Assembly: GCA_049304055.1 (NCBI GenBank)
Contig: JBAQNT010000007.1
Span: forward strand, 55,370 to 119,369
DNA length: 64,000 nt
Source of the DNA: Microgenomates group bacterium
GTDB taxonomy: Bacteria; Patescibacteriota; Microgenomatia; UBA1406; GWC2-37-13
Direction of reading: 5' to 3'
Part shown: in pieces, positions 1,137-55,645 of the stretch
Layout of the letters: each line of letters opens with the position of its first letter
Numbering within the stretch: the first letter of the stretch is position 1
The notes under the pieces: generated by a model
The model's input: only the letters and a program-made list of their open reading frames with translations
Told to the model about the DNA's origin: nothing
Database searches by the model: none
Made by a program: the position numbers and the translations under genes

Positions 1137-1210
1137 TGCCCGGTCGTCTAACGGTAGGACATCAGACTCTGAATCTGATTATCTTGGTTCAAATCCAGGC
1201 TGGGCAACCA
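1137..1210 (+). tRNA. tRNA-Gln (anticodon CUG), CCA encoded
   Basis: Hand-folded cloverleaf. Acceptor TGCCCGG/CTGGGCA (one G-U pair), D-arm GTCT..GGAC, anticodon stem TCAGA/TCTGA with loop CTCTGAA (anticodon CTG). T-arm CTTGG/CCAGG with loop TTCAAAT, discriminator A, then CCA. Confidence 0.85.
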
Positions 1211-17500: not shown

Positions 17501-20500
17501 GTTCAATTGCCACAGGTGACACTGAAAGGAAATTGAAGAATTCAAACGCCATTCTCTGTCGAAGATCTGGATCTTCAACCTTGTCCAAAGCCTTAAACAT
17601 CTCATCGACTCCCGCTCGAAGAAATGCTCCTACATATCGGAAATCTCGTGTCTTGAGCGCGTCCATGAACTTCTCATGATTTGAGTCGGCGATGACCGAA
17701 AGGTCTCCTTGGTTCCCTTGTGTTGTGTTGCCTTCGTACTTTAATGCAAGATATGTTCTCCAATAGTTACCGAATTCATTTTGAGCAGCTTCGACTCCTT
17801 CTATGACTGCGCTTCCCATTATTTCATCTATTTCTTTCTGCAATTTTTCTTTTTCGTCTGCTTGATCGCTCCCTGTACCTAACGCTTTAAGCTGTTCTCT
17901 GAGTGTATCTGCACTTTTTTCCTTTGCTTTTTGCGCTACATCTCCCTTCAGAACTGCGCTCAGCGATAACTTTTCTGCGGCATATTCTGCAGCATCAGCA
18001 CCGAGCACTTCTGAAATTCGTCCGAATAAGGTTTTGAGTGTGCTCAATGATTTTATTGTCTGTTCATTTGTTGAGGCACTATCAATTGCTGTCTTTATTG
18101 CATCTTGAACGTTCGTAAGTAATTTATAGCAAATTTCAGGAAATGCAGATTTGACCTCCTCTGGCTTTTGCTCTTTTTTCATCGGCTTGAGGAGATTAAT
18201 CATCCCATCTACCTGAAGCATAAGGGACTGGACCACATTAAATTCACTCCCAATACCATAGTGTGGATTCTGAATATGACTTACCAATCTTTTACCGAAT
18301 TCTGGATCACTGGCTTGATCGAAATAGAACTTAACCATACCCTCAACAAAAGTAGGCTTACCATCACTTTCTCTTTTGAGAGTTTCTTGTACAAATGAAT
18401 TAAACTCATCTGCCACCACATGTTTTTGTTTTGTGTCAAGATTTGCGACAGATAGTGGAAGTATGCCTCCAGTTATGTCGGTTGAATCCAACCATAGTAA
18501 TAACTGCTTAAATCCAACTTCTATAAACTTCTGTTGCATCTCTGGAGCAAGTAATTTTACTGTATCTTTTACTGACGTAAAATGTGCTTTCGTATCTTCA
18601 AGAATCTGTTTTACGCTTGCCGTATGCAATCCTCCATGCCCAAACTTTTTGTCGACTATGTCTGAAATATATGTGTTCCAGAATTCGATCAGAGGTTGTT
18701 CAACCAGTTGATTATTTGTCTCAACTCGCAATGTGTTTAGTTCATCCTTTGTTATCTTTCCATGTTCTTGGATGAATACTGCAAGTCGTCCTCCTATCTG
18801 GAGCGTGCCATTTTGAGTCAACACATTGTATTCTGCACTACTTATTTCGCCTGTTTCCTCTATTTTTTTTGCTATTTCAGCATATAATTTACCCTTTCCA
18901 AAGATCTCTTCTGTGAGACCTGTTTCTGTTACTGACGTGAATAATGATTGACTTTCAGAAGTAGAAAATGCACCTTTTAACTCATCTGTAGCTGCGTGAT
19001 GGATTTCTCCCAATTTTTTTACTACAGTCGTATCTAATGTGCGAGCTTCGCGTATTGTGGCCTTGATTTTATCTACTGTGACTTCATATACCTGAGCTTG
19101 TTTGTCGTTACCTTGTCTTTTTGCACGGCTGATCAGATCTTTTGCTTGCTTAACGAAAGTGTCAGCTAGACTAAATTGTCCAGCATCAGCTCCATAATCT
19201 GCGTCCTGTATTCTTGCAACAAGCTTATCTAAGAATGCTTTTGTAGACTCAGGGGTTTCTATTTGCTGATCATAAAAGTCAGTTTGACCAGTTACTACTT
19301 CAGGGTTGACGCTAGTAAACACTGCTTCCGCTGTGTTTTTGTATAGATCTCGAATTGCAGGGTTTTTTGTCTTCTTATATGCATCAAGTAGTTTTTCTTG
19401 TACGACCTCAAACATTCCTGCCTGAAGAGATACGTTGGCTCTTCGTTCATATGCGCTAAACAGACCGCCAATGACTCCAGCAATTGCCGATGTGGCCTCT
19501 TCTGACTTACCTCCCAATCCATATCCAGGATTAGATATCATATCAACCCACATGGTCAGTTCAGCATGTAGTTGATCGCTTTTTGCTAATTTTCGTCTTT
19601 CTATTTCATCATCTCCTAGTCTGTGTTTTGCAACTAGATCAAATCGCTCGGTAAGACTGTTGACTTGTGTATCAAAGTAAGCAGTATCTATCGTATGTTT
19701 TGCGACATCTGCAAATACACGACCTAACGAAAGAGCCGCTCTTCCGTCCACCTGAGTTCTAAGACCTTCAAGTAATTGTCTTTTTGCGGCATTCATTATC
19801 TGATATCTAGTCTTTGAGGGGAGCTCTTGATATGCATCGCTTTCTAAAAACGCCTTTAGTTCGACTTCGATTATGCTTTTTGTCTCTCTGCCGTCTTCAA
19901 CAGTAAATGGATGGGTTCCACCTATACCGTAAGTTGCATTTTCTATCCCTGTTCTCGTTCCTATGAACATGTTAGGAATCATCGATCCCGTTTCTTTTGC
20001 AGCTTCATCTGCGATATTCGCAGTGATATTGTGCCAATATTGTTTTCTCCCGTCTGCTAGGTTTTCATTATCTAAAATAAGATCTTTGTAGTAATCTCTT
20101 AATTCTTCTCGCTCTCTTTCATTTACGTGCTCCCTATCAAATCCTGAAAGCAACATTTCACGTCCAACTTCTATAAATCGTGATGCATAGTCACTCCACC
20201 CGCGATCATGCAATGATCCAACAACCTCATTATAGAAATTTTTTATTTCTTTGGTCGTCGGCTTATGTTTACCTTCTCCATATTTTCCATGCGTTATCTG
20301 TGATACCATAAAGGACCAAAACTCTTCAGGCTCCAATTGCCCCGCTTTTGTCACTTTTTCGTTCAAAATCAAACCCATTCCAGTGAGACGTCGGGAGAAG
20401 AATGGGAGAAGTTCGCGTGCAGCATGAAGGTATGCTGTTCCAATCGATGCGCCTTCGCTAGGGATATATGGCACACGTGATAATTCACGAGAACCGGCAC

Positions 20501-20531
20501 CTTGGTTACTGAGAGATATGAGTTTGGACAT
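14592..20531 (-). CDS. Giant orphan protein (1979 aa), predicted cytoplasmic and helix-rich
   Basis: Uninterrupted 5.9-kb ORF with its own promoter. No signal peptide or TM segment. Charged and coiled-coil-like composition. No catalytic motif that I can recognise. Confidence 0.85.
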   Translation of the reverse strand: MSKLISLSNQGAGSRELSRVPYIPSEGASIGTAYLHAARELLPFFSRRLTGMGLILNEKVTKAGQLEPEEFWSFMVSQITHGKYGEGKHKPTTKEIKNFYNEVVGSLHDRGWSDYASRFIEVGREMLLSGFDREHVNEREREELRDYYKDLILDNENLADGRKQYWHNITANIADEAAKETGSMIPNMFIGTRTGIENATYGIGGTHPFTVEDGRETKSIIEVELKAFLESDAYQELPSKTRYQIMNAAKRQLLEGLRTQVDGRAALSLGRVFADVAKHTIDTAYFDTQVNSLTERFDLVAKHRLGDDEIERRKLAKSDQLHAELTMWVDMISNPGYGLGGKSEEATSAIAGVIGGLFSAYERRANVSLQAGMFEVVQEKLLDAYKKTKNPAIRDLYKNTAEAVFTSVNPEVVTGQTDFYDQQIETPESTKAFLDKLVARIQDADYGADAGQFSLADTFVKQAKDLISRAKRQGNDKQAQVYEVTVDKIKATIREARTLDTTVVKKLGEIHHAATDELKGAFSTSESQSLFTSVTETGLTEEIFGKGKLYAEIAKKIEETGEISSAEYNVLTQNGTLQIGGRLAVFIQEHGKITKDELNTLRVETNNQLVEQPLIEFWNTYISDIVDKKFGHGGLHTASVKQILEDTKAHFTSVKDTVKLLAPEMQQKFIEVGFKQLLLWLDSTDITGGILPLSVANLDTKQKHVVADEFNSFVQETLKRESDGKPTFVEGMVKFYFDQASDPEFGKRLVSHIQNPHYGIGSEFNVVQSLMLQVDGMINLLKPMKKEQKPEEVKSAFPEICYKLLTNVQDAIKTAIDSASTNEQTIKSLSTLKTLFGRISEVLGADAAEYAAEKLSLSAVLKGDVAQKAKEKSADTLREQLKALGTGSDQADEKEKLQKEIDEIMGSAVIEGVEAAQNEFGNYWRTYLALKYEGNTTQGNQGDLSVIADSNHEKFMDALKTRDFRYVGAFLRAGVDEMFKALDKVEDPDLRQRMAFEFFNFLSVSPVAIELAAREKRRAGENEYQGAKSVRTIGSIQVEFIKRIIDESVTNRNRLGDFTTYIETNLAEKNVIPKEKLLCIELLFSYRYAKFGRTFAGKNPYEGKDVNSLEAKDVDFGQDPKSISNATHGLESSIETSSKMIKKGDRLSILEQIAAWGNFSPRILMELAVTGEMRTRLIKNKRKFGQSKWNKVREQVYNLLRDEKKDDRWYEKLNKVYKATGKYLFNADTETSVSPALTKIILNALDIPLSDKPEDSKNALELVLAFLDDFGQVATLPGTSFMFDKDWTTLDGDKRSAWESFAYNLIHQIEDLEMSGPATGANEAQRTSLADVNAAHLVLLGKAFKDFGENEDVKAVGTIGSAYVNLLHDILTDNDKSGAYKYHEDIRLAAQHVLQNELPLWSDEMMHKFFDGFVAKANSYGDYIKWIEHHNWTGIAFGAGVVPEHTYIGDLLRGQTESSEAASQLIYTKSSRMAVDATLEMLRGYMFLGGRGGKRMAISIVTNEDTDQFKDKIRGVMKVDQEGNFIEQAVRITYALGDEEQKKEMKKILEDLGRKDLSTYIATFNQDEIPGNAQKYLSKTGGLMDELAGELTVIEKKYEEALKTMMGGLKPLIRIENGQVVSIEGLGQDSVLLAQLKARGEGWISELEAKMDIQGKRDQMKSAADLEKILKERGSFAVFEEMVKQARISGGGENFEVKVIESMQEFLHVLTETAKKSAGKGGNMTQPNMFQVSRNQTGAVLSAIQSGAEAMASSLAKIVNITMEQRTEVMAKFAEIMQKTGLGESSTSVETLVKTYVDMFTKIISGDADQVEKIMGMRTAVAEKRGLELQSLLAIEEKLTNEMSALGEKADRIAIDQIKAEIDGLKSIRDQVYKAAGDAVEELKTYGDVTKAYGKNLDQRLAASAEEKTAALQFFHNVSAPNGKLGKRAFKYMQWFAGYAAAGETLNFEHLSLDPVVLLNNMGLKDYQQEDLFSQTNAQ

Positions 20532-20646: not shown

Positions 20647-23106
20647 TTAATCCTTTTTAATACCAATATATGAACTCACTTCTCTCAATCTTTCAACTGT
20701 TTTTGGTACATATTCTGTCCCATGTTTTTGAAATATACTGAGGACGTCTGTAACTGTTTTGATCCTATGGCCTCCTTCTAGGTGCCGCATATTTGCAATC
20801 AGAATCGTTTCTAATGCTTCCTTATTTATATGGGGATATTGTCTTACTTGACCGCGTAGACCGCTTGGATATGTTCGGGCTGTTTTCCAAAACCAACTTT
20901 CTGCTTTTTCTTGACGATGTTCTTGCTTACAAAGTTCAAACGCAAGTTGCATCACTTCCTTTCCAATTAATTCTTTACGGACGTGTGCAACACGAAGATC
21001 GTTCTCTATTTGAGTGCTAATACCGTTCTGAGCAAGTATATCCTCGAGTTTTTGCATTTGATTTCTTGTTTCTCCGTCCCACCATAGTTTTACCTCATCA
21101 ACCCTTTTTGAAAGATTCTCATATACAATATTCCGCTCATCTTTTTTATTCTGGCTTGCTTGTTTTTTTCTAAAATCAGCCTCGATAGTCGCAAAATCAG
21201 GTCTTTGCACCATATCAAGAAGTCCACCTAAATCTTTATGTTCTCTTGCTCTATGCGCTCGTTCGGTTATGGTAAGCAGCGTCTGCATATCATGCCATTC
21301 ATTTGAGTTGAAATCGGCATTTTGTTCCTGTGCAACAAGTGCAGCGTACACCTTTAACGTTCTGTGTTTCTTAAGTATTTCTTGAATCTCAGGATGAGAT
21401 GCATTTATGAGATTATGTATCGCATGGTGGGCAAAGGAGTTTCTACGATCCATTGCCTTTTGTTCATTGTGGTCTTTTATCCTTAACCTCACTACATTTA
21501 GCCCAACGAGGGCTGCTCCTATCAGACCAAGAAATGAAAAGCCATTATATGCCCGCTCAGCAAATATTGGGTATGTTGGTTTGTCTATTTGCCCAGCAGA
21601 AAGTTCATATACGTCCAGAGGCATCGTCTGGCTATAACCATTCTTATCTGTCATTGTTAGGCTCATATCATTTACCAATCCCATTTGACCATAGGGAACC
21701 TCACAATTAAATGTGTTTACCTGGGCAACCGGTGCGACCGGATTACAGTTAATCGTGGTATCAGAACCGTTTACCATTTTTTCAATTCCTTGCCATAAAC
21801 TTCCTGGACTCATCGCAGTACTTTGATGACCTTTTACTTCTATCGTTTCTACGCTTTGAGTTGAGTCGTTTGAGGTTATTGTTATTCGCAGATCTTTACC
21901 CTTCCATGCGTCGACATGTGCCCCATATGCAAATGGATTATAGATAGGTTGTTGGGTTGTTGCAGTAGTTGACCTATGCGCAGGATCAGAAACAGCAAAT
22001 TGAATCGGTTGATTGTTCATATCGACTCGGGCAGCCCCAAGTGGGACACTTCCTGTTTGACCTTCTGGAATATGTACTCCATTTACTACACAATCAGCGT
22101 CATATGCAACTTCAACACAAGTAAATCCGTCCAATATGATTTGTCCCTTCAGGATTTTTACTGTGCCCGAATACATGAATTGTGGACTCCCTTCCAGTCC
22201 AAGAGTTGGCGCAACAAAAGTAGTATGTGTTTGAAAGCCATTACTTTCTGCCGTGATGAGTGTTGATTCCCCATCTCCTGCTTTTACTGGGACATTCAAG
22301 GCTTCACCCTGTTGTTGGGTTGCTCCAACTTTTATTGAATCAGCTGAAAGTTCACATGCTGTGTCACATGCAACAGCCACACTGTATTGATCGTTTTTAT
22401 AAACGATACCTGATTGGACAGTTGGATTGGCTCCAATCGCAACATCAATCTGTGATGTATTACCTGCGATATCTTTCATGGTCGCAACCGCTCTGTGCGA
22501 TGGGTCATTTATCACAGCAGACACCTGACCATTCACTATGGGAGATGTAATTCCTTCAACTGTGAACATCCCATCTTCACTACAGTTTGCCTGAATTGTA
22601 TTGCCAGAAAACCCTGTTTGAGTGCAGGCGATTTCTTGTGTGTCGAATGTAGCAGATCCACTTGCACTCCCCGCAGTCACACATGAACCGCTTGAGTCAA
22701 CTGCTTGTATTTCCATCATGATAGATGCGACCCCCTGCACCCCATCTTGCGGTGTCAAATTGACCGTCATTTCACCTGTTATTGGATTATATGAAACATT
22801 AGCGGTTACAAGCTGTGCATTAGAAATTTCGATGTTTGGTGGACATTTGACTAAGTCTATTGAATCGCTAAACGCAGCGGGGATTGTTATAGATTGTTGA
22901 AACTGTTCTGAAACAAACTGAGGAAGGTTTAATGCATATTGTTGGGGAGGTGCTTCTGACCCACACGCTGTCAAGACAGCCTCGGCAATACCAAGTGCAA
23001 GGAATGTCGCGATGTTTTTTGATGTAAGGAGTGTGTGATGTTCAGGCATGCGAGCAGACATCCGATGTTCCATCTTACGACGTCTATGCTCTTGCTTGGC
23101 AGACAT
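20647..23106 (-). CDS. Bitopic envelope protein (819 aa): lipoprotein-like signal, ~480-aa extracytoplasmic beta-rich region, one TM, ~275-aa cytoplasmic helical tail
   Basis: The lipobox-like ALGIAEAVLTAC follows a basic N-terminus. The second TM, FSFLGLIGAALVGLNVVRL, is encoded at 21481-21540. The track start at 23145 is a TTG. The ATG at 23106 sits 10 nt after a TATAAT. Confidence 0.75.
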   Translation of the reverse strand: MSAKQEHRRRKMEHRMSARMPEHHTLLTSKNIATFLALGIAEAVLTACGSEAPPQQYALNLPQFVSEQFQQSITIPAAFSDSIDLVKCPPNIEISNAQLVTANVSYNPITGEMTVNLTPQDGVQGVASIMMEIQAVDSSGSCVTAGSASGSATFDTQEIACTQTGFSGNTIQANCSEDGMFTVEGITSPIVNGQVSAVINDPSHRAVATMKDIAGNTSQIDVAIGANPTVQSGIVYKNDQYSVAVACDTACELSADSIKVGATQQQGEALNVPVKAGDGESTLITAESNGFQTHTTFVAPTLGLEGSPQFMYSGTVKILKGQIILDGFTCVEVAYDADCVVNGVHIPEGQTGSVPLGAARVDMNNQPIQFAVSDPAHRSTTATTQQPIYNPFAYGAHVDAWKGKDLRITITSNDSTQSVETIEVKGHQSTAMSPGSLWQGIEKMVNGSDTTINCNPVAPVAQVNTFNCEVPYGQMGLVNDMSLTMTDKNGYSQTMPLDVYELSAGQIDKPTYPIFAERAYNGFSFLGLIGAALVGLNVVRLRIKDHNEQKAMDRRNSFAHHAIHNLINASHPEIQEILKKHRTLKVYAALVAQEQNADFNSNEWHDMQTLLTITERAHRAREHKDLGGLLDMVQRPDFATIEADFRKKQASQNKKDERNIVYENLSKRVDEVKLWWDGETRNQMQKLEDILAQNGISTQIENDLRVAHVRKELIGKEVMQLAFELCKQEHRQEKAESWFWKTARTYPSGLRGQVRQYPHINKEALETILIANMRHLEGGHRIKTVTDVLSIFQKHGTEYVPKTVERLREVSSYIGIKKD

Positions 23107-23116
23107 ATAGTCACGT

Positions 23117-23145
23117 ATTATATCAAAAACTATAGGTTTTTTCAA
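23117..23145 (-). promoter_or_regulatory. Sigma70-type promoter TTGAAA-17-TATAAT (TG-extended), 10 nt before the ATG at 23106
   Basis: The reverse complement of 23140-23145 is TTGAAA and of 23117-23122 is TATAAT. Confidence 0.55.
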
Positions 23146-44251: not shown

Positions 44252-44616
44252 ATGATGAGTATAGCAAATTTACCAATAGCAAGCCGTAACAACTTTTTTC
44301 CAAATACACAGAAAGCCGTTCGCATACGCCACTTCATTTACCTTTCTTATCATGAAGCCCTAATCTGAAAATTCAGGCATAGAATATTCATTGATTAAAT
44401 ATGCTTAAACTTAAGCAATGTATCAAAGTTCGGTTATTACTTCCAATTTTGATCACAGGCAATTACTATAGGAGATATGATATAGATTGATACTATAAGG
44501 TAGGTTAAATTTAAATGCGGTAATTAAATTAAATCAACTTAAATACTCTTAATTGAGGCTTCTCACACCTTTGGGGATCGATGAAAAACTATATCAAAAC
44601 ATACAACAACTACCTC

Positions 44617-44644
44617 TTGACACTATTATTATTATTGTTATATG
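44617..44644 (+). promoter_or_regulatory. Sigma70-type promoter TTGACA-16-TATATG (TG-extended), 9 nt before the ATG at 44654
   Basis: TTGACA at 44617-44622 and TGtTATATG at 44636-44644. The track start ATG at 44642 lies inside the -10 element. Confidence 0.5.
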
Positions 44645-44653
44645 CTGAGATAT

Positions 44654-45115
44654 ATGTCGAATAGGTATAATTTTTTTTATTTCGAGGCTACATTTAAAAA
44701 ATACCTTCATGCGGGAAACGCAGGAGCCGCCACTATCAAGAGCTATCTCTCAGATCTCCATTTTTTCTTTACGTGGATGCAAAATGAAAAGGAAATTAGT
44801 GAATTAGACCTATATGACGCTCCAAACATATTTACTCACTCATTGGTTCACGAATATCATTCATTCCTTCTAGCCTCGAAAACCCCCTCCTCTACGTATG
44901 ATAGGCGCCTCTCAAGCCTCAGACAGTTCTTTGCCTTCTGCGTGGCCCAGGCGTGGCTAAAATCCAACCCTGCACATGAGTTTGATAGATACACCAAGAC
45001 AGACCAACTGAACGACATTATTACTAGATTCAAAGATCACTTGAAGACCAAAAAGGTCAGTGATGACGTATTAGCGCGTCACATCAATACGATTAGAAAC
45101 CTTATTATCAATTAA
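44654..45115 (+). CDS. Stand-alone phage-integrase N-terminal SAM-like (core-binding) domain protein, with no catalytic domain
   Basis: TIKSYLSDLHFFFTWM and YDRRLSSLRQFFAFCVAQAWLKSNPA fit the tyrosine-recombinase core-binding domain. The ORF stops after about 153 aa without an R..HxxR..Y catalytic domain. Confidence 0.6.
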   Translation: MSNRYNFFYFEATFKKYLHAGNAGAATIKSYLSDLHFFFTWMQNEKEISELDLYDAPNIFTHSLVHEYHSFLLASKTPSSTYDRRLSSLRQFFAFCVAQAWLKSNPAHEFDRYTKTDQLNDIITRFKDHLKTKKVSDDVLARHINTIRNLIIN

Positions 45116-45123
45116 TTAATACT

Positions 45124-45309
45124 ATGAGCTATTTAAATAAAGGTCTTTCAGCTTCAAAAATGGGTGCCTTATTGGCTTTTGAACGCCTTAAAATATGGTT
45201 TGATCCTGCCGTTACAGGCTCCCCTTATGAGTCAGAAGGCCCACGAAACAAGCCACAGACCCAAAAAAGATACCCATTTATACCGAGAAAACTAAGCATG
45301 CGGATGTAA
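45124..45309 (+). CDS. Small hypothetical ORF (61 aa)
   Basis: Only positional support, between the SAM-like gene and the giant gene. No motif found. Confidence 0.2.
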   Translation: MSYLNKGLSASKMGALLAFERLKIWFDPAVTGSPYESEGPRNKPQTQKRYPFIPRKLSMRM

Positions 45310-45395: not shown

Positions 45396-48300
45396 ATGAA
45401 GATACTAACAAATAAGACAATTAGCTCCTTCCTCTCCAAACTCACCCTTGACTCTATTCCTGTGCATGAAAAAGTAGAAAAGATCCAATTTGTCGTCCAG
45501 TTCATTGATTGGTTGACCGACAGTAAAGAACTCTCTCCTGGAGACGCGATACGATTTCGCAACGAATTATATAAGAAAAAGAGAGAGTTATCATATAAAC
45601 AGGCTCCAAAACTCTCATTACCTTTAAAATATGTTGGATTTAGCCTCGGAATACTATCGTTACTCCTGGTCGTGGGAGGTATATATATCCGCTTTTTCCG
45701 CAATACCAATACGCCGTTTGCTTATTCTACGGCTCCCGTACAGGCTGGACGTACCATATCATTCCAAGGTCGCCTGACTGACTCACTGGGTAACCCCATC
45801 AACGCCCCCATTGACATTACCTACAACTTTTATACTGCTCCAACCGGTGGAACTCCTATAACCGGATCAACAAGAGTCTGTACTGCAGGACCAGACCAAG
45901 ATGGCGTATTCTCATCCTTAATCGGTAATGATTCAGGACCAAGCTGTAATACGGAACTCCCCAACTCCATATTCACTGAGAATACAACGGTATATTTGGG
46001 TGTTACTGTTGGAACTGAACCAAGCGAGATGACCCCCAGACAGCAGATTGCGAACGTAGGATATGCAATCAATTCAGAGACACTGCAGGGCATGCCGCCA
46101 GGCCAATCTGTCTCCAACGTCCCCTTTATCAATCAGGATGGTAACATGCTAATCGGCGCCTCAAACCCAGGTATACGTTCTACCTATGCAAGCTCTAACT
46201 TCACCATATCGAGCGCTCAGGCAACAACCATACAATCAGCAGGAAGTGGGGATATTACCCTCTCTGCAAGTGAGGGAGGAAGCTTACGATTCAAGGCATA
46301 TAACGGTACGCTAGAGGAGGTTATGACCATCCTCAACACCGGGAGAGTCGGTATTGGCATAACTGCCCCACGAGCGCTACTTGACGTAAATGGAGATGCA
46401 ACTGTATCGGGAAGCCTTATCGCAGGAGGTCAAATCAAGGTTGGAGAGTTTACCTCCCCACCCACGAATCTGGGAAATGGCTCTTTATACTATGACAGCA
46501 ATACAAACAAGATATATTTCTGGAACGGCACTGCTTGGGCAGATATGGGATCAGGGACAACCCAGTACTTTCAACGAACACTGGGAAGCTTGGCTCCCAC
46601 CTACATCACCGATGATATCAACCTTGGAGCTGTGGCAACAGGAAGCGCTATAGTACATCTTCCTGGAACTAACAATCAGAATGCATGGTTCAATTTGGGA
46701 ACGGGAAATGTGGGAATTGGAACGACTGCTCCTCTATCCAAATTCAGTATTGGAGCAAGTGGGGATCCAAGTTATACTGCGTACATATCTAACGGCGATG
46801 ATTACGGTATATTTGGAAGTGGTAATAACTATGGAGTGTATGGATCAGGTGGCAGTGCCGGCGTTTATGGTTTTAGCTCAACCAATAATGGAGTACTTGG
46901 TTCTGCTGCGGGCACGGGTACTGGTCTATATGGCACAAATAGCGGAGGTGGATTTGGTGCATATGCCACTTCCGTATCTGGAACCGGAGGTTATTTTGCT
47001 TCAACAAATGGTGTCGCACTTATTACAGGTACTGGCAATGTCGGTATCGGAAATCCTTCCCCTACAGCTAAACTTGATGTGAGCGGTAACTTAAAAGTAA
47101 GTACTTATGCCACTGTGTCTGGTTCGTTAGCCCTAGGTACATCTAACGCAGCTGCAGGTCCTGGCAACTTAAGTATGTCCGGAAATCTCCTCACGGATGG
47201 AAGTATAACGTTCTCATCGTTAGCCACCGGTATCGTACGGAGCACTTCCGGATTACTGTCATCATCTGCAATCAATCTTGCAAGTGCAGATGTCACAGGC
47301 CTTCTTTCATCAACAAATGGAGGAACAGGTGCAGACAATTCAAGTGCAGCACAATACAGCGTTCCATATTACTCCTCAACGGGAGTGCTTGGTGGAATTC
47401 TCACACCCGGATCAGTTGGATATGTACTCTCCACCAATGGCGCAGGAGGCGCTCCTTCATGGATAAATGCATCTGGAGTAGGTACGAACTATTGGGAAAT
47501 CGCAAACGGCGCACTTTATCCAGTAAATGCTACGCTCGACGCTTTTATAGGAGGTGCAGCGTCTGCATCAGCTAAATTTGCATTCCTTAATGTCAGCTCC
47601 GGCACTCCTACCGCTTCGATATCTGGCACAACTGCAAACGTAAATACTTTCATTGATGGAAATGGAAATATAGGGACGACAAATAGGACTTCGCTCGTAC
47701 TGGGAAACTCAGCCACATATGACTCAACAGGCAATATCTTACTCAACCCGAACGGGACGGGAAATGTAGGTATTGGGACAACTAATCCGGACTATGCATT
47801 GGATGTTGCAGGAAATGTGGGGATCAATGAATACATCTATCATAATGATAATAATCAGCGTGATTACTTCAGATTCTTGAATGATAGGGCGATATTGGTA
47901 ACAGGCAATAGTGTAATATTCGACACACAAAGTGAAAATTTCAACGTGAAAAGCGGTACATTATTTGTACAGAATTCGTCAAGCAATGTAGGTATCGGAA
48001 ATATCACTCCTGCACAAAAGCTTGATGTTGTCGGCAATGCCACTGTTTCTGGTGACTTGATGGCAGGTGGGCAGCTTCAAATCGGACGTTTTGGCTCTGA
48101 GCCAACCGCAGTAGGTGTCGGATCCTTCTACTTCAACACGACAGATAATACACCTTATTATCATAATGGGACAACATGGACTGCTTTTTCTTCAGGTGGC
48201 GCAAACTATTGGAACATCTCAAGCGGTGCTATATATCCGATAAACTCCACACTCGACATGCTTATCGGCGGTACGGCCTCTGCATCCGCTAAGTTTGCAT

Positions 48301-51300
48301 TCCTCAATGTGGGTGGTGGCACACCCACTGCATCGGTCGCCGGCTCATTGGCAAATGTGGCTACCTATCTGACAGGAGATGGAAACTTAGGCACAACTAA
48401 TATGGCAGCCCTAACTGTAGGTGGCGCATCGACCGGGTCTATCCAACTATCACCAAAAGGCACGACGGGACTGTTTGTTGATGGGAGTGGAAATGTGGGA
48501 GTTGGAACGACTGCTCCTGCTAATCCTCTTGAAATAGCCTCAACAAACAATCAATTAAGATTATCCTATACGAGTGGAAGTGTTTACTCTACCCTCTACA
48601 CGGATAGTTCTGGTTATACTCACCTCTCAGGAACCGGTGGCAGAACAATTAATGATAATGGTATATTCCGCTCAAATTATCTTTGGGATAACGGAACAAG
48701 TCTCAGCATCCAAACTGTAGGTACCGGCAGAAATATCATTGTGTCCACGTCAGATGTCGCAGATGACATCCAATTACAACCAAGCGGGGGTAATGTAGGA
48801 ATAGGGATAGCAAGCCCTAATTATGTACTTGATGTAGTGGGCGACATCAACCTCACAGGAGCCATCCGCGCCAATGGCGATGCAGGAACGAGTGGTTATA
48901 TCCTCACATCAGCTGGAGGTGGAGTAAATACATGGACCGATCCCTCCACTTTAGGAAGTGGCGCCAATCTATGGAAGATAACGAATGGCGCTCTTTATCC
49001 CGTGAATGCGACACTTGACGCATTTATCGGCGGTACGGCCTCTGCATCAGCTAAGTTTGCATTCCTGAATGTGAACTCAGGTACCCCTACCGCATCGGTC
49101 GCCGGCTCATTGGCAAATGTGGCTACCTATCTGACAGGGAACGGTAATTTAGCTACAACCAACATGGCAGCCCTAACTGTAGGTGGCGCATCGACCGGGT
49201 CTATCCAACTATCACCAAAAGGCACGACGGGACTAAATATAAATGGAAATGGAGATGTGGGGGTTGGGATAGTTCCAGATTCAACAGCCAGATTGCAAAT
49301 ATATAAATACAATGGAACAAATAATGCAGCAACGACCGGAACGCTCAGTAATATCTTGTTGTACCAAACCGCCTCATCTGACTTTAATAATAACGCTTTC
49401 CAATACAATCTTCAGACCGCTGCAAATACAGGTGTTACAAACAACTGGTCACAAATAGGATTTGGTGGAGGTGTACAGATTGGCGCCAGTCATTTGGGTA
49501 CATTTGGAACGGTTACCGGAATTAATAACTGGAACTACATCCTTGCAGGAGCTGCAGGTACTGTTTCTTCAATGAATGGGATGTGGATAAATCAAACAAG
49601 CACTGGTGCTAATACTACCAGTATTACCAATAGCAGAGGTATATATATAAGTACACCAACACTCAATGGTGCCACATTGGCAAACAACTATGGAATATAC
49701 TTGGAGGATCAATCTTCAATTGGAGGTACCAGCAACTACTCTATATATTCAGCGGGTGGAGCTAATTATTTCGCTGGAAATACAGGTATTGGAATTTCTC
49801 CAACTTATAAATTAGATGTTTCAGGCGATATTAATCTCACTGGCGCCCTTCGTGCAAATGGAAGCGCAGGTACAACCGGATACATTCTCACATCAGCTGG
49901 AGGTGGAGTAAATACATGGACCGATCCTGCGTCGCTTATAACTGGTGGAGAAACGCTCTGGACAATCCTCAATGGTGCACTCTATCCTGTAAATGCTACG
50001 GTCGATACATTTATAGGAGGAACAGCGTCTTCATCAGCTAAATTTGCATTCCTGAATGTGAACTCAGGTACTCCTACTGCCTCCATATCGGGAACTACTG
50101 CTAATGTGAATACATTCATCGATGGTAATGGAAATATTGGGACAACAAACAGAAAGACTCTGACTATTGGCAACAGTACGACATATAATACGACAGGAAA
50201 TGTGTTGATAAACCCAAACGCTGCAAGCAATGTTGGAATCGGTACGATTGATCCACAGACATTATTCCACGTCCAGCAAGTAGCAGTGACATCCACCGCT
50301 GAGGAGATTGCACGATTCAATGTGAGCGATGATGCGACGGCCTATTTCTCACTCAGAAACGGATCAACAACGGACGGACTTTTTTCACCACAGATGAGAT
50401 TCCGTGGCTCCGGCTCAACAACTGCTGGAAACATACAAGCGATGATTACAACTGATACCGGCACCTCTCCAGCACTTGTCTTTACCTCCCAACTGGCCAG
50501 TAGTGCACTCGCCACCCGCCCTGTGCTCGCTATCCGAAATTACACGACCGACCTTATGACAGTCCTTGCAAACGGGAGTGTCGGGATTGGGACAACTTCC
50601 CCACTTGCGGCACTTGATATCCGCAAGACCTCTGGGACCACTCCTGTCGCATCCATCTCTGGAGCTACATCCAAGTCCACGTTAGTCGTTGACCAATCGG
50701 GAGTAGGAGATATTATGACCGCTTCCTCATCGGGCGAGACACGCTTTGTGGTCAAGAATAATGGCAATGTGGGCATTGGTCTTACCAATCCAACTTACAA
50801 ACTTGATGTCAACGGAACCGTGCGAGGTGATATATTCACCGATACAGTAGGCAGCGGAGCATACTATGTCGATCCATCAGGTGACTCGGTGTTCGGCGGA
50901 GGCTTAAGCTTAGTGGGTGGCTTTACGGCATCTTCTGCATCGGTATCAGGCAATCTTACCATGGGATATGGTGGACAGTTGCGCTCAGCATATGGCCCCC
51001 TTAACCTTGCCTATAAATCAGGTCTCAATACCTGGTCTACCGGACTGATTCTGCAGGATACTACGGGAAATGTGGGAATAGGAACGATTGCGCCTGTTGC
51101 AAATCTCCATGTATTCTCTGCCGCAAATGCACAGATGCGACTGGAAACAGGTGCTAATGCAGATGGAGCATTTAATATCTTGGAAGATGGTGGCGCTAAT
51201 GACCATGGCGCATCCTTTGCTCTTGATGGTACTAATAATGTTGTTTCTTGGCAAAGCGTGCTTTCAGGAGTAGGTACGAATGTACTTTCTATTCCTTATG

Positions 51301-53957
51301 CGGGAACCTATGCTAACAGAATTGGGATAAACACAACAACCCCTCTTGCAAGTCTTGATCTTCGATCGATGTTGGGGACTATCCCTGTGGCATCCATCTC
51401 AGGAAACACGAGTCAGGCCGCACTCATTGTCGATCAATCAGGCATTGGGGATATTTTCACAGCATCCTCATCGGGCGAAACGCGATTCGTTATAAAGAGC
51501 AATGGAAATGTCGGTATTGGAGTGTCCGATCCGACCAGTAAGCTGTCGATTGCAGGCACCAGTTCCACTATTTCAAACTTGAGTGGTGACATCGTCTTTG
51601 ACTCCGCTTCAAATAATATTTCTTTCTCTAACGATAATCTTATTAATGTGGGGAATATTGCCTCGATTGGACAGATACAAGTGGGTGGCTTTGCAAGTCC
51701 ACCTACTTCGATCGGAAATGGTGCGATGTATTATGACACGGTAAACAATAAGATATTCTATTGGGATGGGAGCGTCTGGTCTGAGATGGGTTCAAAATAT
51801 TGGCAAAGAACTTTGGGGAGTCTTTCGCCACAATATATAACGGACGCGCTTAATTTGGGAGCGATTGCGAGTGGAAGTGCACTTGTCCACTTGCCTGGAA
51901 CCAACAATCAGGATGCATGGTTTAATCTGGGAACAGGAACTGTGGGTATCGGGACCACGACTCCTGATTCAGGCGGATATGGATATAAATTGGATGTCAC
52001 GGGCACAATGGTTGCCGATCAGTATTTTGACTCGGCATCAAATTCCTATTATGTCGATCCCGCGGGAGACTCGGTGTTGGGTGGTAACGTCACATTGGGT
52101 GACATTTTCATGATCGATGGCACGCCTCTCATATCCTCCCTTAATGCAGGCTCTTATAGCACGATAACCATCAAAGGATCGGGAGACACGACAACTGCAT
52201 CGCTCTGTGTGGATGAGGGTACAGGTTCTGCATGTGACGGTAAAATCAATGCCGGCACCATCGACCCTCCGTATACCATTAATGGGAAAAAATACGCCAC
52301 ATACCTCCCTTCTATGACCGGCGTTAAAGAAGAGACGACCGGAAAGGTCATGTTGACCGAGCGAAACGAAGAAGCAAAGGCATATATCAAACGCATAGCG
52401 CTTGGAAACCAGCACGAAGATTCAGACTTGTGGCTTTTTGCAAAAGCGACAAACCTGAAAGACCAAATACAGGATATGACTGTCCTTCTTTCTTCAAATA
52501 CCAATGGAAAAACATGGTACTCCGTGGACCCAGCAACAATGGTGCTCACGTTCTATTCATCAACCCCAAGCGAAGTGTCCTATCGCCTCACTGCTCCTCG
52601 ATTTGATGCAGGTCGATGGGCCAATACCAGACATGAGAGTGATTTTGGCACTGGTTTTATCCTGAATGACAGGGGGAATATCCTTGCCGGAGATGCACCT
52701 ACTTATACTGCGCCAAAGATAGTAGCTCAAGGGACTGTATTCACTCTTATCGGAAACTTTATCGAAGAATTCACCGCCGCAAACCAAGCACTGTTCGCAA
52801 ACATTACCGCAGGTATTATATCGACCCAGAAAATAATATCCCCAATTGCTGAAATCGATACATTGAATGTAAGTAATAAAATACAGTCGAAAGAAATTAA
52901 TACAGAGCTCTTGAAAGCCTCAAACACCATTGAAACCCCGCGATTGAATACGAATGTTATCGATATTGGGACACAGTCGGGACAGCTTGCAAAACTCGTC
53001 ATCAATGGACTGTATAATACGCCAGTCGTAACGATAGATGCAGAAGGATCGGCTACGTTTGCAGGAACATTGACCGCAGAGGCTGTCCAAACAGAGAATG
53101 CGTCGATCTCAGGGACACTCATCGCAAAAGAGATACAATCTGAAACGATTGACGCGCTTTCTACCCAACTTGCAAGCAATTCATCCACTCTCGCCTCTTC
53201 ATATCAGGAACTGAGTGGCGATATCAATGCTGTACAACAAGAGTTGGCGGCATTAAGAACTTCACCACTTCCAAATGCATCGTATTATCAAAATCTGGAT
53301 GCAACATATAATTCACTATCTATTACAGATACAGCAAACATCTATAAAGCATACATATCAGACTCATTGGTTGTTGGCTCCCTCTTTATGGAGGATCACT
53401 CGATACTTGCGCTCGCCTCCGATCTCTCCATCTCATCGCTTGGCACGATAACGTTTTTTGATGGATCAGTTATCATGGCAAAAAATGGAAATATCACATC
53501 AAAAGGTGAGATTTCAGCCTCCTCTCTTGCTATTAAGAACAAGGAGGGTGTTACCGTTGCTGAGATTGACGCATCAGGCTCCGCTCGATTCAACGAAGTA
53601 ATTGCAAAGAAATTTTCCCTTGAGTCGATCGCGACGCAAGGGGCTCTTATTGCCGATTCAGGGATAGTAAATAATATCAATGTCCCAATACCAGCCATCA
53701 AGACAAATGCTGAGGTCGCTGGAATTGGGGCTGTACCTCAAGACGCCAAAGAAGTCATCATTTATAATGACAATGTTACGGAAGATTCCCTCATCTATCT
53801 GACTCCAACTTCTGACAACATGCAAGGTCAACTTTCTGTAAGTAAAAAGGTGACCTGTGCACCAAACGCAACACTTCCCTGCACGCCTTATTTCATCGTA
53901 TCTTCCAGTCTGTTGATACACACTGAAACTCCCTTTAACTGGCTTATCATCAATTAA
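45396..53957 (+). CDS. Giant membrane-anchored fibre/adhesin-like protein (2853 aa) built from tail-fibre-like repeat modules
   Basis: The N-terminal cytoplasmic ~75 aa are followed by the TM GFSLGILSLLLVVGGIYI. There are dozens of GNVGIGTT.P..KLDV motifs and recurrent G(N/S)GxxYYDxxxNKxxxWxGxxW motifs. Gly/Thr/Ser/Asn-rich beta composition. Confidence 0.9.
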   Translation: MKILTNKTISSFLSKLTLDSIPVHEKVEKIQFVVQFIDWLTDSKELSPGDAIRFRNELYKKKRELSYKQAPKLSLPLKYVGFSLGILSLLLVVGGIYIRFFRNTNTPFAYSTAPVQAGRTISFQGRLTDSLGNPINAPIDITYNFYTAPTGGTPITGSTRVCTAGPDQDGVFSSLIGNDSGPSCNTELPNSIFTENTTVYLGVTVGTEPSEMTPRQQIANVGYAINSETLQGMPPGQSVSNVPFINQDGNMLIGASNPGIRSTYASSNFTISSAQATTIQSAGSGDITLSASEGGSLRFKAYNGTLEEVMTILNTGRVGIGITAPRALLDVNGDATVSGSLIAGGQIKVGEFTSPPTNLGNGSLYYDSNTNKIYFWNGTAWADMGSGTTQYFQRTLGSLAPTYITDDINLGAVATGSAIVHLPGTNNQNAWFNLGTGNVGIGTTAPLSKFSIGASGDPSYTAYISNGDDYGIFGSGNNYGVYGSGGSAGVYGFSSTNNGVLGSAAGTGTGLYGTNSGGGFGAYATSVSGTGGYFASTNGVALITGTGNVGIGNPSPTAKLDVSGNLKVSTYATVSGSLALGTSNAAAGPGNLSMSGNLLTDGSITFSSLATGIVRSTSGLLSSSAINLASADVTGLLSSTNGGTGADNSSAAQYSVPYYSSTGVLGGILTPGSVGYVLSTNGAGGAPSWINASGVGTNYWEIANGALYPVNATLDAFIGGAASASAKFAFLNVSSGTPTASISGTTANVNTFIDGNGNIGTTNRTSLVLGNSATYDSTGNILLNPNGTGNVGIGTTNPDYALDVAGNVGINEYIYHNDNNQRDYFRFLNDRAILVTGNSVIFDTQSENFNVKSGTLFVQNSSSNVGIGNITPAQKLDVVGNATVSGDLMAGGQLQIGRFGSEPTAVGVGSFYFNTTDNTPYYHNGTTWTAFSSGGANYWNISSGAIYPINSTLDMLIGGTASASAKFAFLNVGGGTPTASVAGSLANVATYLTGDGNLGTTNMAALTVGGASTGSIQLSPKGTTGLFVDGSGNVGVGTTAPANPLEIASTNNQLRLSYTSGSVYSTLYTDSSGYTHLSGTGGRTINDNGIFRSNYLWDNGTSLSIQTVGTGRNIIVSTSDVADDIQLQPSGGNVGIGIASPNYVLDVVGDINLTGAIRANGDAGTSGYILTSAGGGVNTWTDPSTLGSGANLWKITNGALYPVNATLDAFIGGTASASAKFAFLNVNSGTPTASVAGSLANVATYLTGNGNLATTNMAALTVGGASTGSIQLSPKGTTGLNINGNGDVGVGIVPDSTARLQIYKYNGTNNAATTGTLSNILLYQTASSDFNNNAFQYNLQTAANTGVTNNWSQIGFGGGVQIGASHLGTFGTVTGINNWNYILAGAAGTVSSMNGMWINQTSTGANTTSITNSRGIYISTPTLNGATLANNYGIYLEDQSSIGGTSNYSIYSAGGANYFAGNTGIGISPTYKLDVSGDINLTGALRANGSAGTTGYILTSAGGGVNTWTDPASLITGGETLWTILNGALYPVNATVDTFIGGTASSSAKFAFLNVNSGTPTASISGTTANVNTFIDGNGNIGTTNRKTLTIGNSTTYNTTGNVLINPNAASNVGIGTIDPQTLFHVQQVAVTSTAEEIARFNVSDDATAYFSLRNGSTTDGLFSPQMRFRGSGSTTAGNIQAMITTDTGTSPALVFTSQLASSALATRPVLAIRNYTTDLMTVLANGSVGIGTTSPLAALDIRKTSGTTPVASISGATSKSTLVVDQSGVGDIMTASSSGETRFVVKNNGNVGIGLTNPTYKLDVNGTVRGDIFTDTVGSGAYYVDPSGDSVFGGGLSLVGGFTASSASVSGNLTMGYGGQLRSAYGPLNLAYKSGLNTWSTGLILQDTTGNVGIGTIAPVANLHVFSAANAQMRLETGANADGAFNILEDGGANDHGASFALDGTNNVVSWQSVLSGVGTNVLSIPYAGTYANRIGINTTTPLASLDLRSMLGTIPVASISGNTSQAALIVDQSGIGDIFTASSSGETRFVIKSNGNVGIGVSDPTSKLSIAGTSSTISNLSGDIVFDSASNNISFSNDNLINVGNIASIGQIQVGGFASPPTSIGNGAMYYDTVNNKIFYWDGSVWSEMGSKYWQRTLGSLSPQYITDALNLGAIASGSALVHLPGTNNQDAWFNLGTGTVGIGTTTPDSGGYGYKLDVTGTMVADQYFDSASNSYYVDPAGDSVLGGNVTLGDIFMIDGTPLISSLNAGSYSTITIKGSGDTTTASLCVDEGTGSACDGKINAGTIDPPYTINGKKYATYLPSMTGVKEETTGKVMLTERNEEAKAYIKRIALGNQHEDSDLWLFAKATNLKDQIQDMTVLLSSNTNGKTWYSVDPATMVLTFYSSTPSEVSYRLTAPRFDAGRWANTRHESDFGTGFILNDRGNILAGDAPTYTAPKIVAQGTVFTLIGNFIEEFTAANQALFANITAGIISTQKIISPIAEIDTLNVSNKIQSKEINTELLKASNTIETPRLNTNVIDIGTQSGQLAKLVINGLYNTPVVTIDAEGSATFAGTLTAEAVQTENASISGTLIAKEIQSETIDALSTQLASNSSTLASSYQELSGDINAVQQELAALRTSPLPNASYYQNLDATYNSLSITDTANIYKAYISDSLVVGSLFMEDHSILALASDLSISSLGTITFFDGSVIMAKNGNITSKGEISASSLAIKNKEGVTVAEIDASGSARFNEVIAKKFSLESIATQGALIADSGIVNNINVPIPAIKTNAEVAGIGAVPQDAKEVIIYNDNVTEDSLIYLTPTSDNMQGQLSVSKKVTCAPNATLPCTPYFIVSSSLLIHTETPFNWLIIN
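47481..50272 (+). repeat. Four copies of a ~110-aa intragenic module arranged A-B-B-A
   Basis: Copies lie at 47481-47810 (A), 48195-48536 (B), 48954-49305 (B) and 49941-50272 (A). All begin (N/L)xW.I.NGA(L/I)YP(V/I)N(A/S)T(L/V)D..IGG(T/A)AS(A/S)SAKFAFLNV. The two B copies share exact stretches of 47 and 71 nt (48402-48472 = 49164-49234). Confidence 0.85.
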
Positions 53958-54008: not shown

Positions 54009-54017
54009 GAATTGTAT

Positions 54018-54641
54018 ATGAGCGACGAAATGAAGGAAGAAACCAACACAAAAAATGCCAAACATACTAGTGTTGACGCGATAATCCTCGTTGCGTTGGT
54101 TGTCGTATTGGGTGCTCTCGGCGGATATTATTTGATGAATCGCTCACCAAAACAAACTAATGTCCCGACATCCGTATCCCCTTCTCCTGTAGTGACACAA
54201 GAACAAAGTGTTCCTACAACAATCAAGGAGCCAGCATCCACAACCACAACTGTAACCACAAAACCTGTCAATTCACCTACCCCATCCCCAAAACCGATTC
54301 CTCATGGATCCAAGAATTTTTATGTTTCAATCGGTAGTGAAGTCAAAGGTCCTCGAATGGGGAAAGGAACGATTGACCCATATGATCCAGTCGTTGGTGG
54401 GAAACAAAGACTTACCATTGAAGTCAATGATACTGTCCCTGTCCAGAAAGTCGTGGCGATAATCAAAACCGATAAAAAAACCTCTGAACCTCATATGTTG
54501 ACGGCAGGTGCAGGAGTCACCAACAAGGGCAACTGGTCTGGAGAATGGACGATGGATGATTCATATCTATACACATATATATTATCCATTCAAGCAACAA
54601 GCGCTAGCGGAACATCGAGTGTTGACATTACACTCAGATAA
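54018..54641 (+). CDS. Membrane-anchored protein with a PT-rich linker and a small C-terminal beta domain
   Basis: TM AIILVALVVVLGALGGYYL, linker SPSPVVTQEQSVPTT..SPTPSPKP, then a ~110-aa domain. Confidence 0.6.
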   Translation: MSDEMKEETNTKNAKHTSVDAIILVALVVVLGALGGYYLMNRSPKQTNVPTSVSPSPVVTQEQSVPTTIKEPASTTTTVTTKPVNSPTPSPKPIPHGSKNFYVSIGSEVKGPRMGKGTIDPYDPVVGGKQRLTIEVNDTVPVQKVVAIIKTDKKTSEPHMLTAGAGVTNKGNWSGEWTMDDSYLYTYILSIQATSASGTSSVDITLR

Positions 54642-54643
54642 GT

Positions 54644-55645
54644 ATGAATATACTATTTAACTTTGTTCTTGCAACACTTCTTTTGTTTGTTCCTTCTTTG
54701 GCATTCGCAGGATGTACATACAACACGGTCGGCACAACAAGCACCATAACCTCTTCATGTTCATTTGATAACACCGTTGATGGATTTGATACCGGAACAG
54801 GGCTTGAAAATACAAGTGAACTTCGTATTTCAGGCGGAACATTGACGATTGGAGGGAATCAGGCTATTGCACTTGGAAAATTGACTCTTACCGGAGGGGC
54901 TCTTGCCATCATCGATGGTGGAAAACTCCTCCTGAATCGAGTCTTATGGTACACGGACGCAGATAATGATGGATATGCGACAACCGCACTCCCGAAGTCA
55001 GACCCATTACCAGGACCACTCACTCCGACCCCAACTGGATTCAAGAGAAGAGTTGCATTTACTCCGACAGGAGTTGACTGTAATGATTTGGCTAGCGAGG
55101 TGAAGATTTCACATACACAATGCTATGCAGATGCTGATGCCGATACATATACGAATGGTTTAGCGCCAAATTCCACTTGTTTGAGTCACGCTACATGCCC
55201 ACTTTCGACTAGCACAAGTGCATCAACACACGGTGCGTCAGTCGTTAGCCATACCTCACCCAATGAGTTAAGGGACGCGGCAACCACTAATGACTGTGGT
55301 GATACAGTGGCAAATGCAAAACCAGGGCAAACAGCTTACTTCTCTACGCCATTCTTGAATAATTCTGGAGTCTCACAATATGACTATGACTGTTCCGGAA
55401 ATGGTACAGCTGCGGGCGAAACAAAAGATCCATCCCAACCACTCTATGTATGTAATGTTACTGGCTGTGCATCCCATTATTTCACGATAAGCGCAGGATT
55501 TACAACGGCTACAGCTTGTGGAGCGACCGGTACATGGAAAACATATGCAGGTGCAGGAGGCGCCGCTTGTACAATCAATATCGCAGGGGCTGGTGTCACC
55601 TGTCCTGCTGGAACAACATCCTCAGTTGTTCAGAAATGTAAGTAA
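54644..55645 (+). CDS. Secreted Cys-rich protein with DADxDGY-type motifs
   Basis: Signal peptide ending LAFAGC, WYTDADNDGYATT and CYADADADTYTNG motifs, and many Cys residues in the C-terminal half. Confidence 0.6.
   Translation: MNILFNFVLATLLLFVPSLAFAGCTYNTVGTTSTITSSCSFDNTVDGFDTGTGLENTSELRISGGTLTIGGNQAIALGKLTLTGGALAIIDGGKLLLNRVLWYTDADNDGYATTALPKSDPLPGPLTPTPTGFKRRVAFTPTGVDCNDLASEVKISHTQCYADADADTYTNGLAPNSTCLSHATCPLSTSTSASTHGASVVSHTSPNELRDAATTNDCGDTVANAKPGQTAYFSTPFLNNSGVSQYDYDCSGNGTAAGETKDPSQPLYVCNVTGCASHYFTISAGFTTATACGATGTWKTYAGAGGAACTINIAGAGVTCPAGTTSSVVQKCK

Follow-up and report, generated by a model that had tools for sequence, protein, structure and literature searches.

A candidate host-attachment fibre with replaced internal cassettes and an apparently detached core-binding domain in a Microgenomates bacterium

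A large part of bacterial diversity belongs to the Patescibacteria, or Candidate Phyla Radiation (CPR), whose members live attached to other cells. To our knowledge, their ways of recognizing hosts are almost undescribed, apart from type IV and Pam pili. Which other surface structures might take part in host recognition is a question raised by a 64,000-nucleotide stretch of DNA from a Microgenomates group bacterium (GenBank assembly GCA_049304055.1, contig JBAQNT010000007.1, positions 55,370 to 119,369 of the forward strand; hereafter the window), which contains a gene for a protein of 2853 amino acids (P0001) that had been described from its sequence as a long adhesin or receptor-binding fibre (the original prediction). 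The gene is present in one copy and takes up 0.75% of the genome, a 1.13-Mb Patescibacteria assembly that is 95% complete. Our analysis favors, with a probability of roughly 0.6, the reading that P0001 is a trimeric, membrane-anchored surface fibre for host attachment that resembles phage tail fibres and carries swappable internal cassettes, an assignment made by analogy with known fibres. Judged from its alignments, P0001 is the split form of a large fibre family, and what is new at this locus is the split core-binding (CB) gene, a conserved small open reading frame (ORF), and variation in internal cassettes that are bounded by connector motifs.

The reading frame of P0001 is uninterrupted, as originally predicted, and the head of about 75 residues with a single transmembrane (TM) helix behind it is recovered by hydropathy: in a scan of the whole protein with 19-residue windows, only windows starting at residues 75-83 exceed a Kyte-Doolittle value of 1.8. 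Because a stretch rich in Lys and Arg precedes this helix, the N-terminus is predicted to be cytoplasmic and the remaining ~2750 residues to lie outside the cell. The description of the polypeptide as rich in Gly, Thr, Ser, Asn, and Ala also holds, since these residues account for 52% of it, and the Cys pair noted in the C-terminal part (2271/2280) is accompanied by two others (162/184 and 2821/2829). The six Cys of the fibre form three local pairs, which fit an extracytoplasmic location because each pair sits inside one extracellular domain. Neither the whole protein (Pfam and NCBIfam) nor the head, taken as 82 residues (Pfam), gave a significant match.

To place the protein in a family, we used a word-seeded search, which found 203 giant homologues at E≤1e-3, and mapped domains on a set of 250 family proteins. 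The shared plan consists of an optional cytoplasmic domain, one TM helix, a base domain of ~200 residues, a variable shaft, and a C-terminal module of ~620 residues. The base domain directly follows the TM helix in 100 of the 250 proteins, and its alignment has 24 invariant columns. Its AlphaFold2 (AF2) model has a mean predicted local distance difference test score (pLDDT) of 73.6, and a Foldseek search with this model returned generic Ig-like sandwiches only (E≥0.013), without a significant fold match.

We found that the extracellular part is related to phage tail fibres at the level of profiles and structures. A PHROG search returned tail-fibre and virion-protein families (best match phrog_9942, E 3e-12; also phrog_18345), and the sole sequence match in the PDB (phmmer) was 8OND_A, the fibre Bd2133 of the MAT group (E 3.4e-4). 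This match is weak but specific; it covers residues 436-569 and 2025-2072 and takes in the connector motif together with a Gly-rich unit. A Foldseek search of BFVD with the C-terminal model gave 56 matches (E≤1e-3), most of them to tail fibres, to tailspikes, or to K1-lyase C-terminal domains. Together with the N-terminal anchor, these matches uphold the proposal of an anchored protein built from tail-fibre-like modules. PF26696 (PTL_trimer) gave weak or faint precomputed matches in close homologues and is a candidate only.

The connectors (GNVGIG..P..KLDV) mark off ~16 shaft units of 63-242 residues. The motif itself is real, and the more than 20 copies first reported were an overcount: a scan with a position-specific scoring matrix found 17, of which 15 scored 16.8-31.5 and two degenerate copies scored 6.1 and 8.0, compared to a best score of 9.7 and a 95% null of 5.9 in 200 shuffles. 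At the DNA level, the sequences coding for the connectors form a 55-nt repeat family. Whole-protein self-BLAST gave the identity match only, and the repeated modules were resolved with chunked queries. Chunked blastp recovered the three modules of the original prediction at their positions, with copies at residues 307-434, 864-965, and 2028-2178, at residues 361-434 and 2108-2178 (66% identity), and at residues 1729-1800 and 1976-2047 (71% identity). It also revealed a module that had been overlooked, module A, which is ~130 residues long and present four times (residues 662-805, 927-1048, 1164-1295, and 1482-1626), with copies that are 52-88% identical to each other. The longest exact DNA repeats within the gene measure 71 nt and 47 nt; both tracts join copies 2 and 3 of module A (48330-48472 vs 49092-49234) and are consistent with recent intragenic gene conversion.

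P0001 was compared to the protein of a sister strain, P0002, which is encoded on contig L007, assembled from a different sequencing run. The two genes are collinear, with 82-93% DNA identity, save for four blocks in which no DNA similarity is left. Outside these blocks the proteins are 66-100% identical per 50-residue window (mostly 86-100%), and the values of 66-80% are confined to windows that touch a block edge. Cassette 1 is flanked by DNA that is 86-93% identical to L007, and its protein sequence is only 24-32% identical to P0002 in 50-residue windows. Among the 250 family proteins, cassette 1 has one weak homologue, cassette 2 has none, and the four cassettes taken together are almost without relatives. 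Of the eight breakpoints, seven are at most 13 residues away from a connector motif, a zone that covers ~22% of the shaft, and the probability of this happening by chance was estimated at ~2e-4. The position of the breakpoints suggests that connector-coding DNA is the likely crossover site for cassette swaps, and the motif may be a dedicated recombination joint for exchanging whole recognition cassettes between strains. The complete replacement of cassettes between near-identical strains argues for diversifying surface recognition rather than a structural scaffold.

The original prediction had proposed looking for this kind of variability at the distal end, and there the comparison came out the other way: in 50-residue windows of the C-terminal module, identity to P0002 stays at 92-100%, and it is the internal cassettes that have been replaced. 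In an exhaustive HMMER search with the C-terminal 619 residues, matches at E≤1e-3 came from 1250 clusters (50% identity) and those at E≤1e-10 from 944, always at the protein end. Domain mapping places the module in 198 of the 250 family proteins, and a survey of 301 genomes from across the phylum detected it in 33. The C-terminal region of ~650 residues is indeed unique within the protein, as had been noted; being conserved more widely than any other part in the family, it is not a variable or lineage-specific receptor-binding tip. Its alignment contains 42 invariant columns, including K..D.PYTI.G....T......G.KEE..G, SDLW.F, and RL..PRFD, which point to a conserved functional site. The module had no Pfam match even at E≤10, no PHROG match, no sequence relative of its profile in the PDB, and no phage match by tblastn. 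Where a heptad-like stalk had been proposed, a long helix is predicted, and in the AF2 monomer model both stalk and shaft are of low confidence.

An intramolecular chaperone had likewise been suggested as something to look for, and neither an S74 nor a G2 domain was detected in P0001. A C-terminal auto-chaperone of the phi29 gp12/G2 or S74 type was considered and rejected, with no support from Pfam, from PDB sequences, or from the top 50 Foldseek matches in the PDB. Some paralogous members of the family carry S74 or G2 domains. One relative, P0046, has a Peptidase_S74 domain upstream of a region homologous to the stalk and the terminal sandwich, with no match to the alpha/beta domain D1; an assembly or chaperone role of the C-terminal module fits this layout, which is compatible with the role and not proof of it. 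We also observed that many other giant Patescibacteria proteins, with open frames of up to 11,716, 8,840, and 6,425 residues in the survey of 301 genomes, carry the terminal beta-sandwich of ~90 residues, ending in FNW(L/W)I(I/V), by itself at the C-terminus. From this distribution, the lone sandwich resembles a C-terminal tag or domain that different proteins share.

Among known systems, P0001 can be compared to the MAT fibres of Bdellovibrio bacteriovorus, which are displayed on the cell surface as trimeric, mosaic adhesins whose N-terminal part is constant (PMC10769870; Caulton et al., 2024). Both are cell-encoded, phage-tail-fibre-like surface fibres that combine a constant cell-proximal N-terminal part with mosaic domains, and both share a connector (GN(V/L)G(I/L)GT..P..KL.V in the match to Bd2133) and a Gly-rich beta-helix unit; as in the S74 subgroup of MAT fibres, some CPR relatives, though not P0001 itself, carry Peptidase_S74. 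P0001 differs in that it is anchored by a TM helix and a cytoplasmic head instead of a secreted N-terminal docking domain, is about three times longer, is genetically linked to a CB-domain protein, and belongs to a monoderm-type CPR cell and not to a predatory proteobacterium. It also varies internally and keeps its C-terminal ~620 residues conserved, whereas MAT fibres vary at the C-terminal tip, so that P0001 has neither the variable tip nor the S74 chaperone that MAT fibres have at the C-terminus. With phage tail fibres and tailspikes, P0001 shares the connector motif, the beta-rich repeats, and a likeness over ~90 residues to tailspike C-terminal beta-sandwiches, but it is TM-anchored, stands outside any virion context, and lacks an S74 or G2 chaperone.

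Closer to home are giant CPR proteins in which a CB or MerR domain, a TM helix, and a fibre form one polypeptide, with the base domain after the TM helix, the connector shaft, and the C-terminal module (P0029, 2238 residues, has all three). Database entries mislabel such proteins as 'site-specific integrase' or 'MerR family'. In ~68 of the 119 homologues listed, the Pfam assignments place SAM-like domains (~55 proteins; one or two copies) or MerR/HTH_17 domains (13 proteins) N-terminal to the TM helix. P0001, in contrast, has no CB domain in its polypeptide; the CB domain is encoded by a separate upstream gene, with a 61-residue ORF in between, and the fibre itself retains only a hairpin resembling half a CB domain. 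In the literature that we searched, we found no description of this CB-fibre architecture, and of the family only what is likely a passing mention in a preprint (PMC13278184). From a similarity network, the preprint gives, by name only, a 'tail fibre-like protein' as a constant neighbour of pam operons across CPR genomes. The fibre gene lies ~1.5 kb downstream of the Pam cassette here, the related loci L008, L009, and L010 are arranged alike, and the Pam-linked protein of the preprint likely belongs to the P0001 family. We also observed Hint, PT-HINT, or intein-type domains (PF07591, PF01079, and PF14890; precomputed Pfam matches) in P0095, P0102, and P0074, a hint that some variants of the fibre may cleave themselves or release a toxin.

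The upstream gene encodes a protein (P0121) that matches Pfam Phage_int_SAM_1 (3e-9). Its matches are to SAM-like domains only, and the catalytic domain of the integrases (R-K-H-R-H/W-Y) is missing; a search of the genome with P0121 found no second copy. With phmmer, P0121 aligned to the N-terminal domains in 63 of the 250 family proteins, and in tblastn the fused homologues map collinearly over the CB ORF and the fibre ORF. In P0028, for example, residues 1-108 align to 44654-45001 (E ~1e-24) and residues 108-301 to 45444-45998 (E 5e-30), that is, to the fibre ORF from residue 17 onwards. On the strength of these alignments, P0121 is the cytoplasmic domain of the fibre family in detached form. 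Translation probably begins at the ATG at 44654 and not at the one at 44642, as judged from the sequence. In this region, conservation of the CB protein begins at Met5, where the orthologue in L009 starts, and a promoter-like TTGACA-N18-TATGCT at 44617-44646 overlaps the first ATG (44642).

Orthologues of P0121 occupy the equivalent position in L001, L008, L009, and L010, and all four of these relatives keep the gene order CB, small ORF, fibre, with fibres that are 41-68% identical. The small ORF has a counterpart of 58-59 residues in each of the four loci, and the alignment contains 11 invariant columns, FDPA..G(S/T)PYE being invariant. An origin of the small ORF as a relic of the linker in the fused protein was rejected, because none of the 250 relatives has its motif within the first 600 residues. 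A 'head-only' N-terminus is common to 16 family proteins, so the split clade has at least 16 members. Because the gene order is conserved and because of these 16 head-only proteins, we consider the split form to be a stable feature of a clade and not a fresh pseudogene.

In the fibre head, residues 3-56 align to CB positions 63-116 (hhalign, 66% probability, E 5.8e-5), and a hidden Markov model of the head matches the juxtamembrane region of the fused homologues. By these comparisons, the head resembles a hairpin like the C-terminal half of a CB domain. We also considered whether the split bisects a second CB domain whose halves reassemble, and rejected this: in hhalign, the tail of P0121 (residues 124-154) and the head (residues 3-56) both fall on the same C-terminal half.

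Table 1. Features of the fibre locus, with positions in the 64,000-nucleotide window.
Feature	Position	Strand	Description
CB gene (P0121)	44642-45115	+	157 residues, soluble core-binding (integrase SAM-like) protein
Small ORF	45124-45309	+	61 residues, between the CB and fibre genes; FDPA..G(S/T)PYE, basic C-terminus
Fibre gene (P0001)	45396-53957	+	Uninterrupted ORF, 2853 residues
Cytoplasmic head (predicted)	45396-45626	+	Residues 1-77; helical hairpin, Lys/Arg-rich just before the TM helix
TM helix (predicted)	45627-45695	+	Residues ~78-100; signal anchor, N-in/C-out, from Kyte-Doolittle scan and positive-inside rule
Base domain	45696-46295	+	Residues 101-300; Ig-like beta-sandwich with Cys162-Cys184, then a beta-rich segment
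Mosaic shaft	46296-52097	+	Residues 301-2234; 17 connectors, modules A (four copies), B (three), C (two), and D (two)
Variable cassette 1	46727-47027	+	Residues 445-544, Gly/Tyr-rich; no DNA similarity to L007
Variable cassette 2	47783-47984	+	Residues 797-863; no DNA similarity to L007
Variable cassette 3	48512-48827	+	Residues 1040-1144; no DNA similarity to L007
Variable cassette 4	49170-49798	+	Residues 1259-1467; no DNA similarity to L007
C-terminal module	52098-53954	+	Residues 2235-2853 (~620), ends FNWLIIN
Alpha/beta domain D1	52323-52607	+	Residues 2310-2404; AF2 pLDDT 81-92
Stalk with long helix	53142-53261	+	Residues 2583-2622; low confidence in AF2 monomer
Terminal eight-strand beta-sandwich	53652-53954	+	Residues 2753-2853; AF2 pLDDT 64-88
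Two small secreted/anchored proteins	54012-55645	+	209 and 333 residues, 3' of the fibre gene

How might such a protein work? In the reading that we favor, the fibre would be exported via Sec through its signal anchor, and the C-terminal module, emerging last, would trimerize and set the register of the three chains, which would then zip from the C- to the N-terminus like those of phage fibres. The finished fibre would project from the cell and bind the surfaces of hosts or partners via its variable cassettes, and recombination at the conserved connector DNA would swap cassettes and thereby change specificity. The CB protein and the 61-residue protein would act together with the cytoplasmic head of the fibre, perhaps in regulation or tethering. 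As a rough inference, the ectodomain would be ~100 nm long if packed like MAT fibres, because 370 residues of Bd2133 (662-1031, the part covered by 8OND) span 142 Å (PMC10769870).

Several observations weigh against this reading. Because tblastn with the shaft and the C-terminus found no match in 50,697 phage genomes, the kinship to phage fibres is remote and visible at the profile and structure level only. The AF2 monomer of the C-terminal module, made from an alignment of 18 sequences, is poor overall (mean pLDDT 54.7), and its Foldseek matches in the PDB, to the C-terminal domains of tailspikes and depolymerases (K64-1 S2-4, K1 lyase, Pam1, and Sf6) and to the R2 pyocin fibre, are weak, local (~90 residues), and not significant (E≥0.07). 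No ligand-binding domain, such as a lectin or TNF-like domain, was recognized in the cassettes, and host binding itself we infer by analogy and from the episymbiotic life of cultivated Patescibacteria. Finally, a conserved distal module is odd for an adhesin, and the C-terminus could dock back on the cell's own envelope.

This last point leads to the alternative that P0001 is a structural part of the envelope, such as an S-layer-associated spacer, a sheath, or a cell-cell tether, with both ends on its own envelope and no host-specific adhesion. Conserved ends around a variable middle would suit such a part, as would the sorting- or anchoring-tag-like occurrence of the terminal sandwich on other giant proteins and the annotation of one homologue as 'S-layer family protein'. 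The whole-cassette replacement between near-identical strains does not suit it, and neither does homology to receptor-binding fibres, so we regard a purely structural role as rather unlikely. It is also possible, though unlikely, that the fibre is in the first place the sensor arm of a transmembrane signalling system, in which contact or tension would be relayed through the TM helix to a CB or MerR module for gene regulation or DNA tethering, a role that is compatible with adhesion; in this clade, the separate CB protein would dock on or leave the half-CB-like head. What speaks for signalling is that two unrelated, putatively DNA-binding folds (SAM-like and MerR/HTH_17) occupy the same position in so many homologues, that P0121 aligns directly to those domains and the fused proteins are collinear with both ORFs, that the order of the three genes is kept in all four relatives, and that a cluster of TTAAAT boxes upstream of the CB gene is common to L001 and L008. 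However, DNA binding by the CB module is putative only, CB domains could equally be protein-protein modules, and the split means that covalent coupling is dispensable; the idea of complementary CB halves was rejected by hhalign, a scan for promoter and terminator consensus sequences gave nothing above the shuffled expectation, and the TTAAAT cluster lies in AT-rich DNA and is absent in L010. Combining contact and signalling, we can picture the CB protein, the 61-residue protein, and the fibre as the dissociated form of a novel single-pass transmembrane coupling device of episymbiotic CPR bacteria, in which one helix would link a giant contact fibre of phage descent to a domesticated CB/MerR module and host contact would be reported directly to the chromosome. 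In the split clade this would work by partner switching, with the soluble CB protein bound at, or freed from, the half-CB-like head. We offer this idea tentatively and consider it doubtful.

Two further explanations question whether the gene belongs to the cell or exists as assembled. A tail-fibre gene of a prophage or another phage-derived mobile element would be in line with the weak PHROG tail-fibre matches, the adjoining integrase-like SAM gene, and the slightly raised GC content of the fibre gene (0.46 vs 0.39-0.44 in the flanks). However, the 'integrase' gene lacks a catalytic domain, the fibre has an N-terminal TM anchor, the phage genomes searched by tblastn hold no relative, and the shift in GC content fits the Gly/Ala/Thr-rich composition. 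The neighbours are cellular, comprising leucyl-tRNA synthetase (LeuRS), transketolase, a P-type ATPase, Pam-type pilus cassettes, ComEC, Wzy_C, a pilin-like gene, and a giant LamG protein. Because no phage genes were seen near the locus and because it is syntenic in four other genomes, a prophage origin is effectively excluded. The gene sits in a cell-surface neighbourhood of a CPR genome, in agreement with the giant CPR surface proteins that the original prediction had invoked. An assembly artefact, either a collapse of repeats or a chimeric ORF, could be suspected from the internal repeats, including the exact tracts of 71 nt and 47 nt. Yet the longer of these is below typical read length, independent assemblies contain intact orthologues of 2893, 3017, 2164, 3793, and 2004 residues with the same ends and synteny, and the contig of the sister strain aligns collinearly over 7.2 kb (91.5% identity), a stretch that takes in the repeat-rich 3' half. 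We therefore consider an artefact to be highly improbable.

Why this family matters is partly a question of how it has been labelled: its more than 1000 clusters are called 'hypothetical' or, wrongly, 'site-specific integrase' in databases. Variation in internal cassettes, a conserved C-terminal unit that would serve in assembly or as a tip, and a CB domain that is either fused or adjacent lead to testable hypotheses on host range and on a possible coupling of contact to DNA, and in the split form the parts are separate by nature and so accessible to experiments one by one.

Some observations concern the surroundings of the fibre gene. Upstream of the CB gene, TTAAAT boxes are found at -118, -113, and -103 relative to the gene start, and the interval 44395-44552 contains six copies vs 0.6 expected. 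The cluster is shared by L001 (3786-3936) and L008 (upstream of 3205) and is partial in L009. It is a possible operator or AT-rich promoter element by its sequence, and we treat it as a lead only. Downstream, the 209- and 333-residue proteins may be accessory to the fibre. Neither has a Pfam match; the first has weak PHROG matches, including a Zot-like family (E 1.5e-3), which may reflect TM or N-terminal similarity only. Two genes are found at the same downstream position in L001, L007, L009, and L010, as counterparts by position, and L008 has genes for 178 and 1166 residues there instead.

Elsewhere in the window, two large ORFs on the reverse strand, at 14592-20531 (1979 residues) and 20647-23145 (832 residues), are without a Pfam match. 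The LeuRS ORF (1179-4283, reverse strand, 1034 residues) contains an alpha/beta-hydrolase insert at residues ~465-640, after the editing domain, which is unusual for LeuRS and matches Ser_hydrolase (2.4e-8), Abhydrolase_6, and Hydrolase_4.

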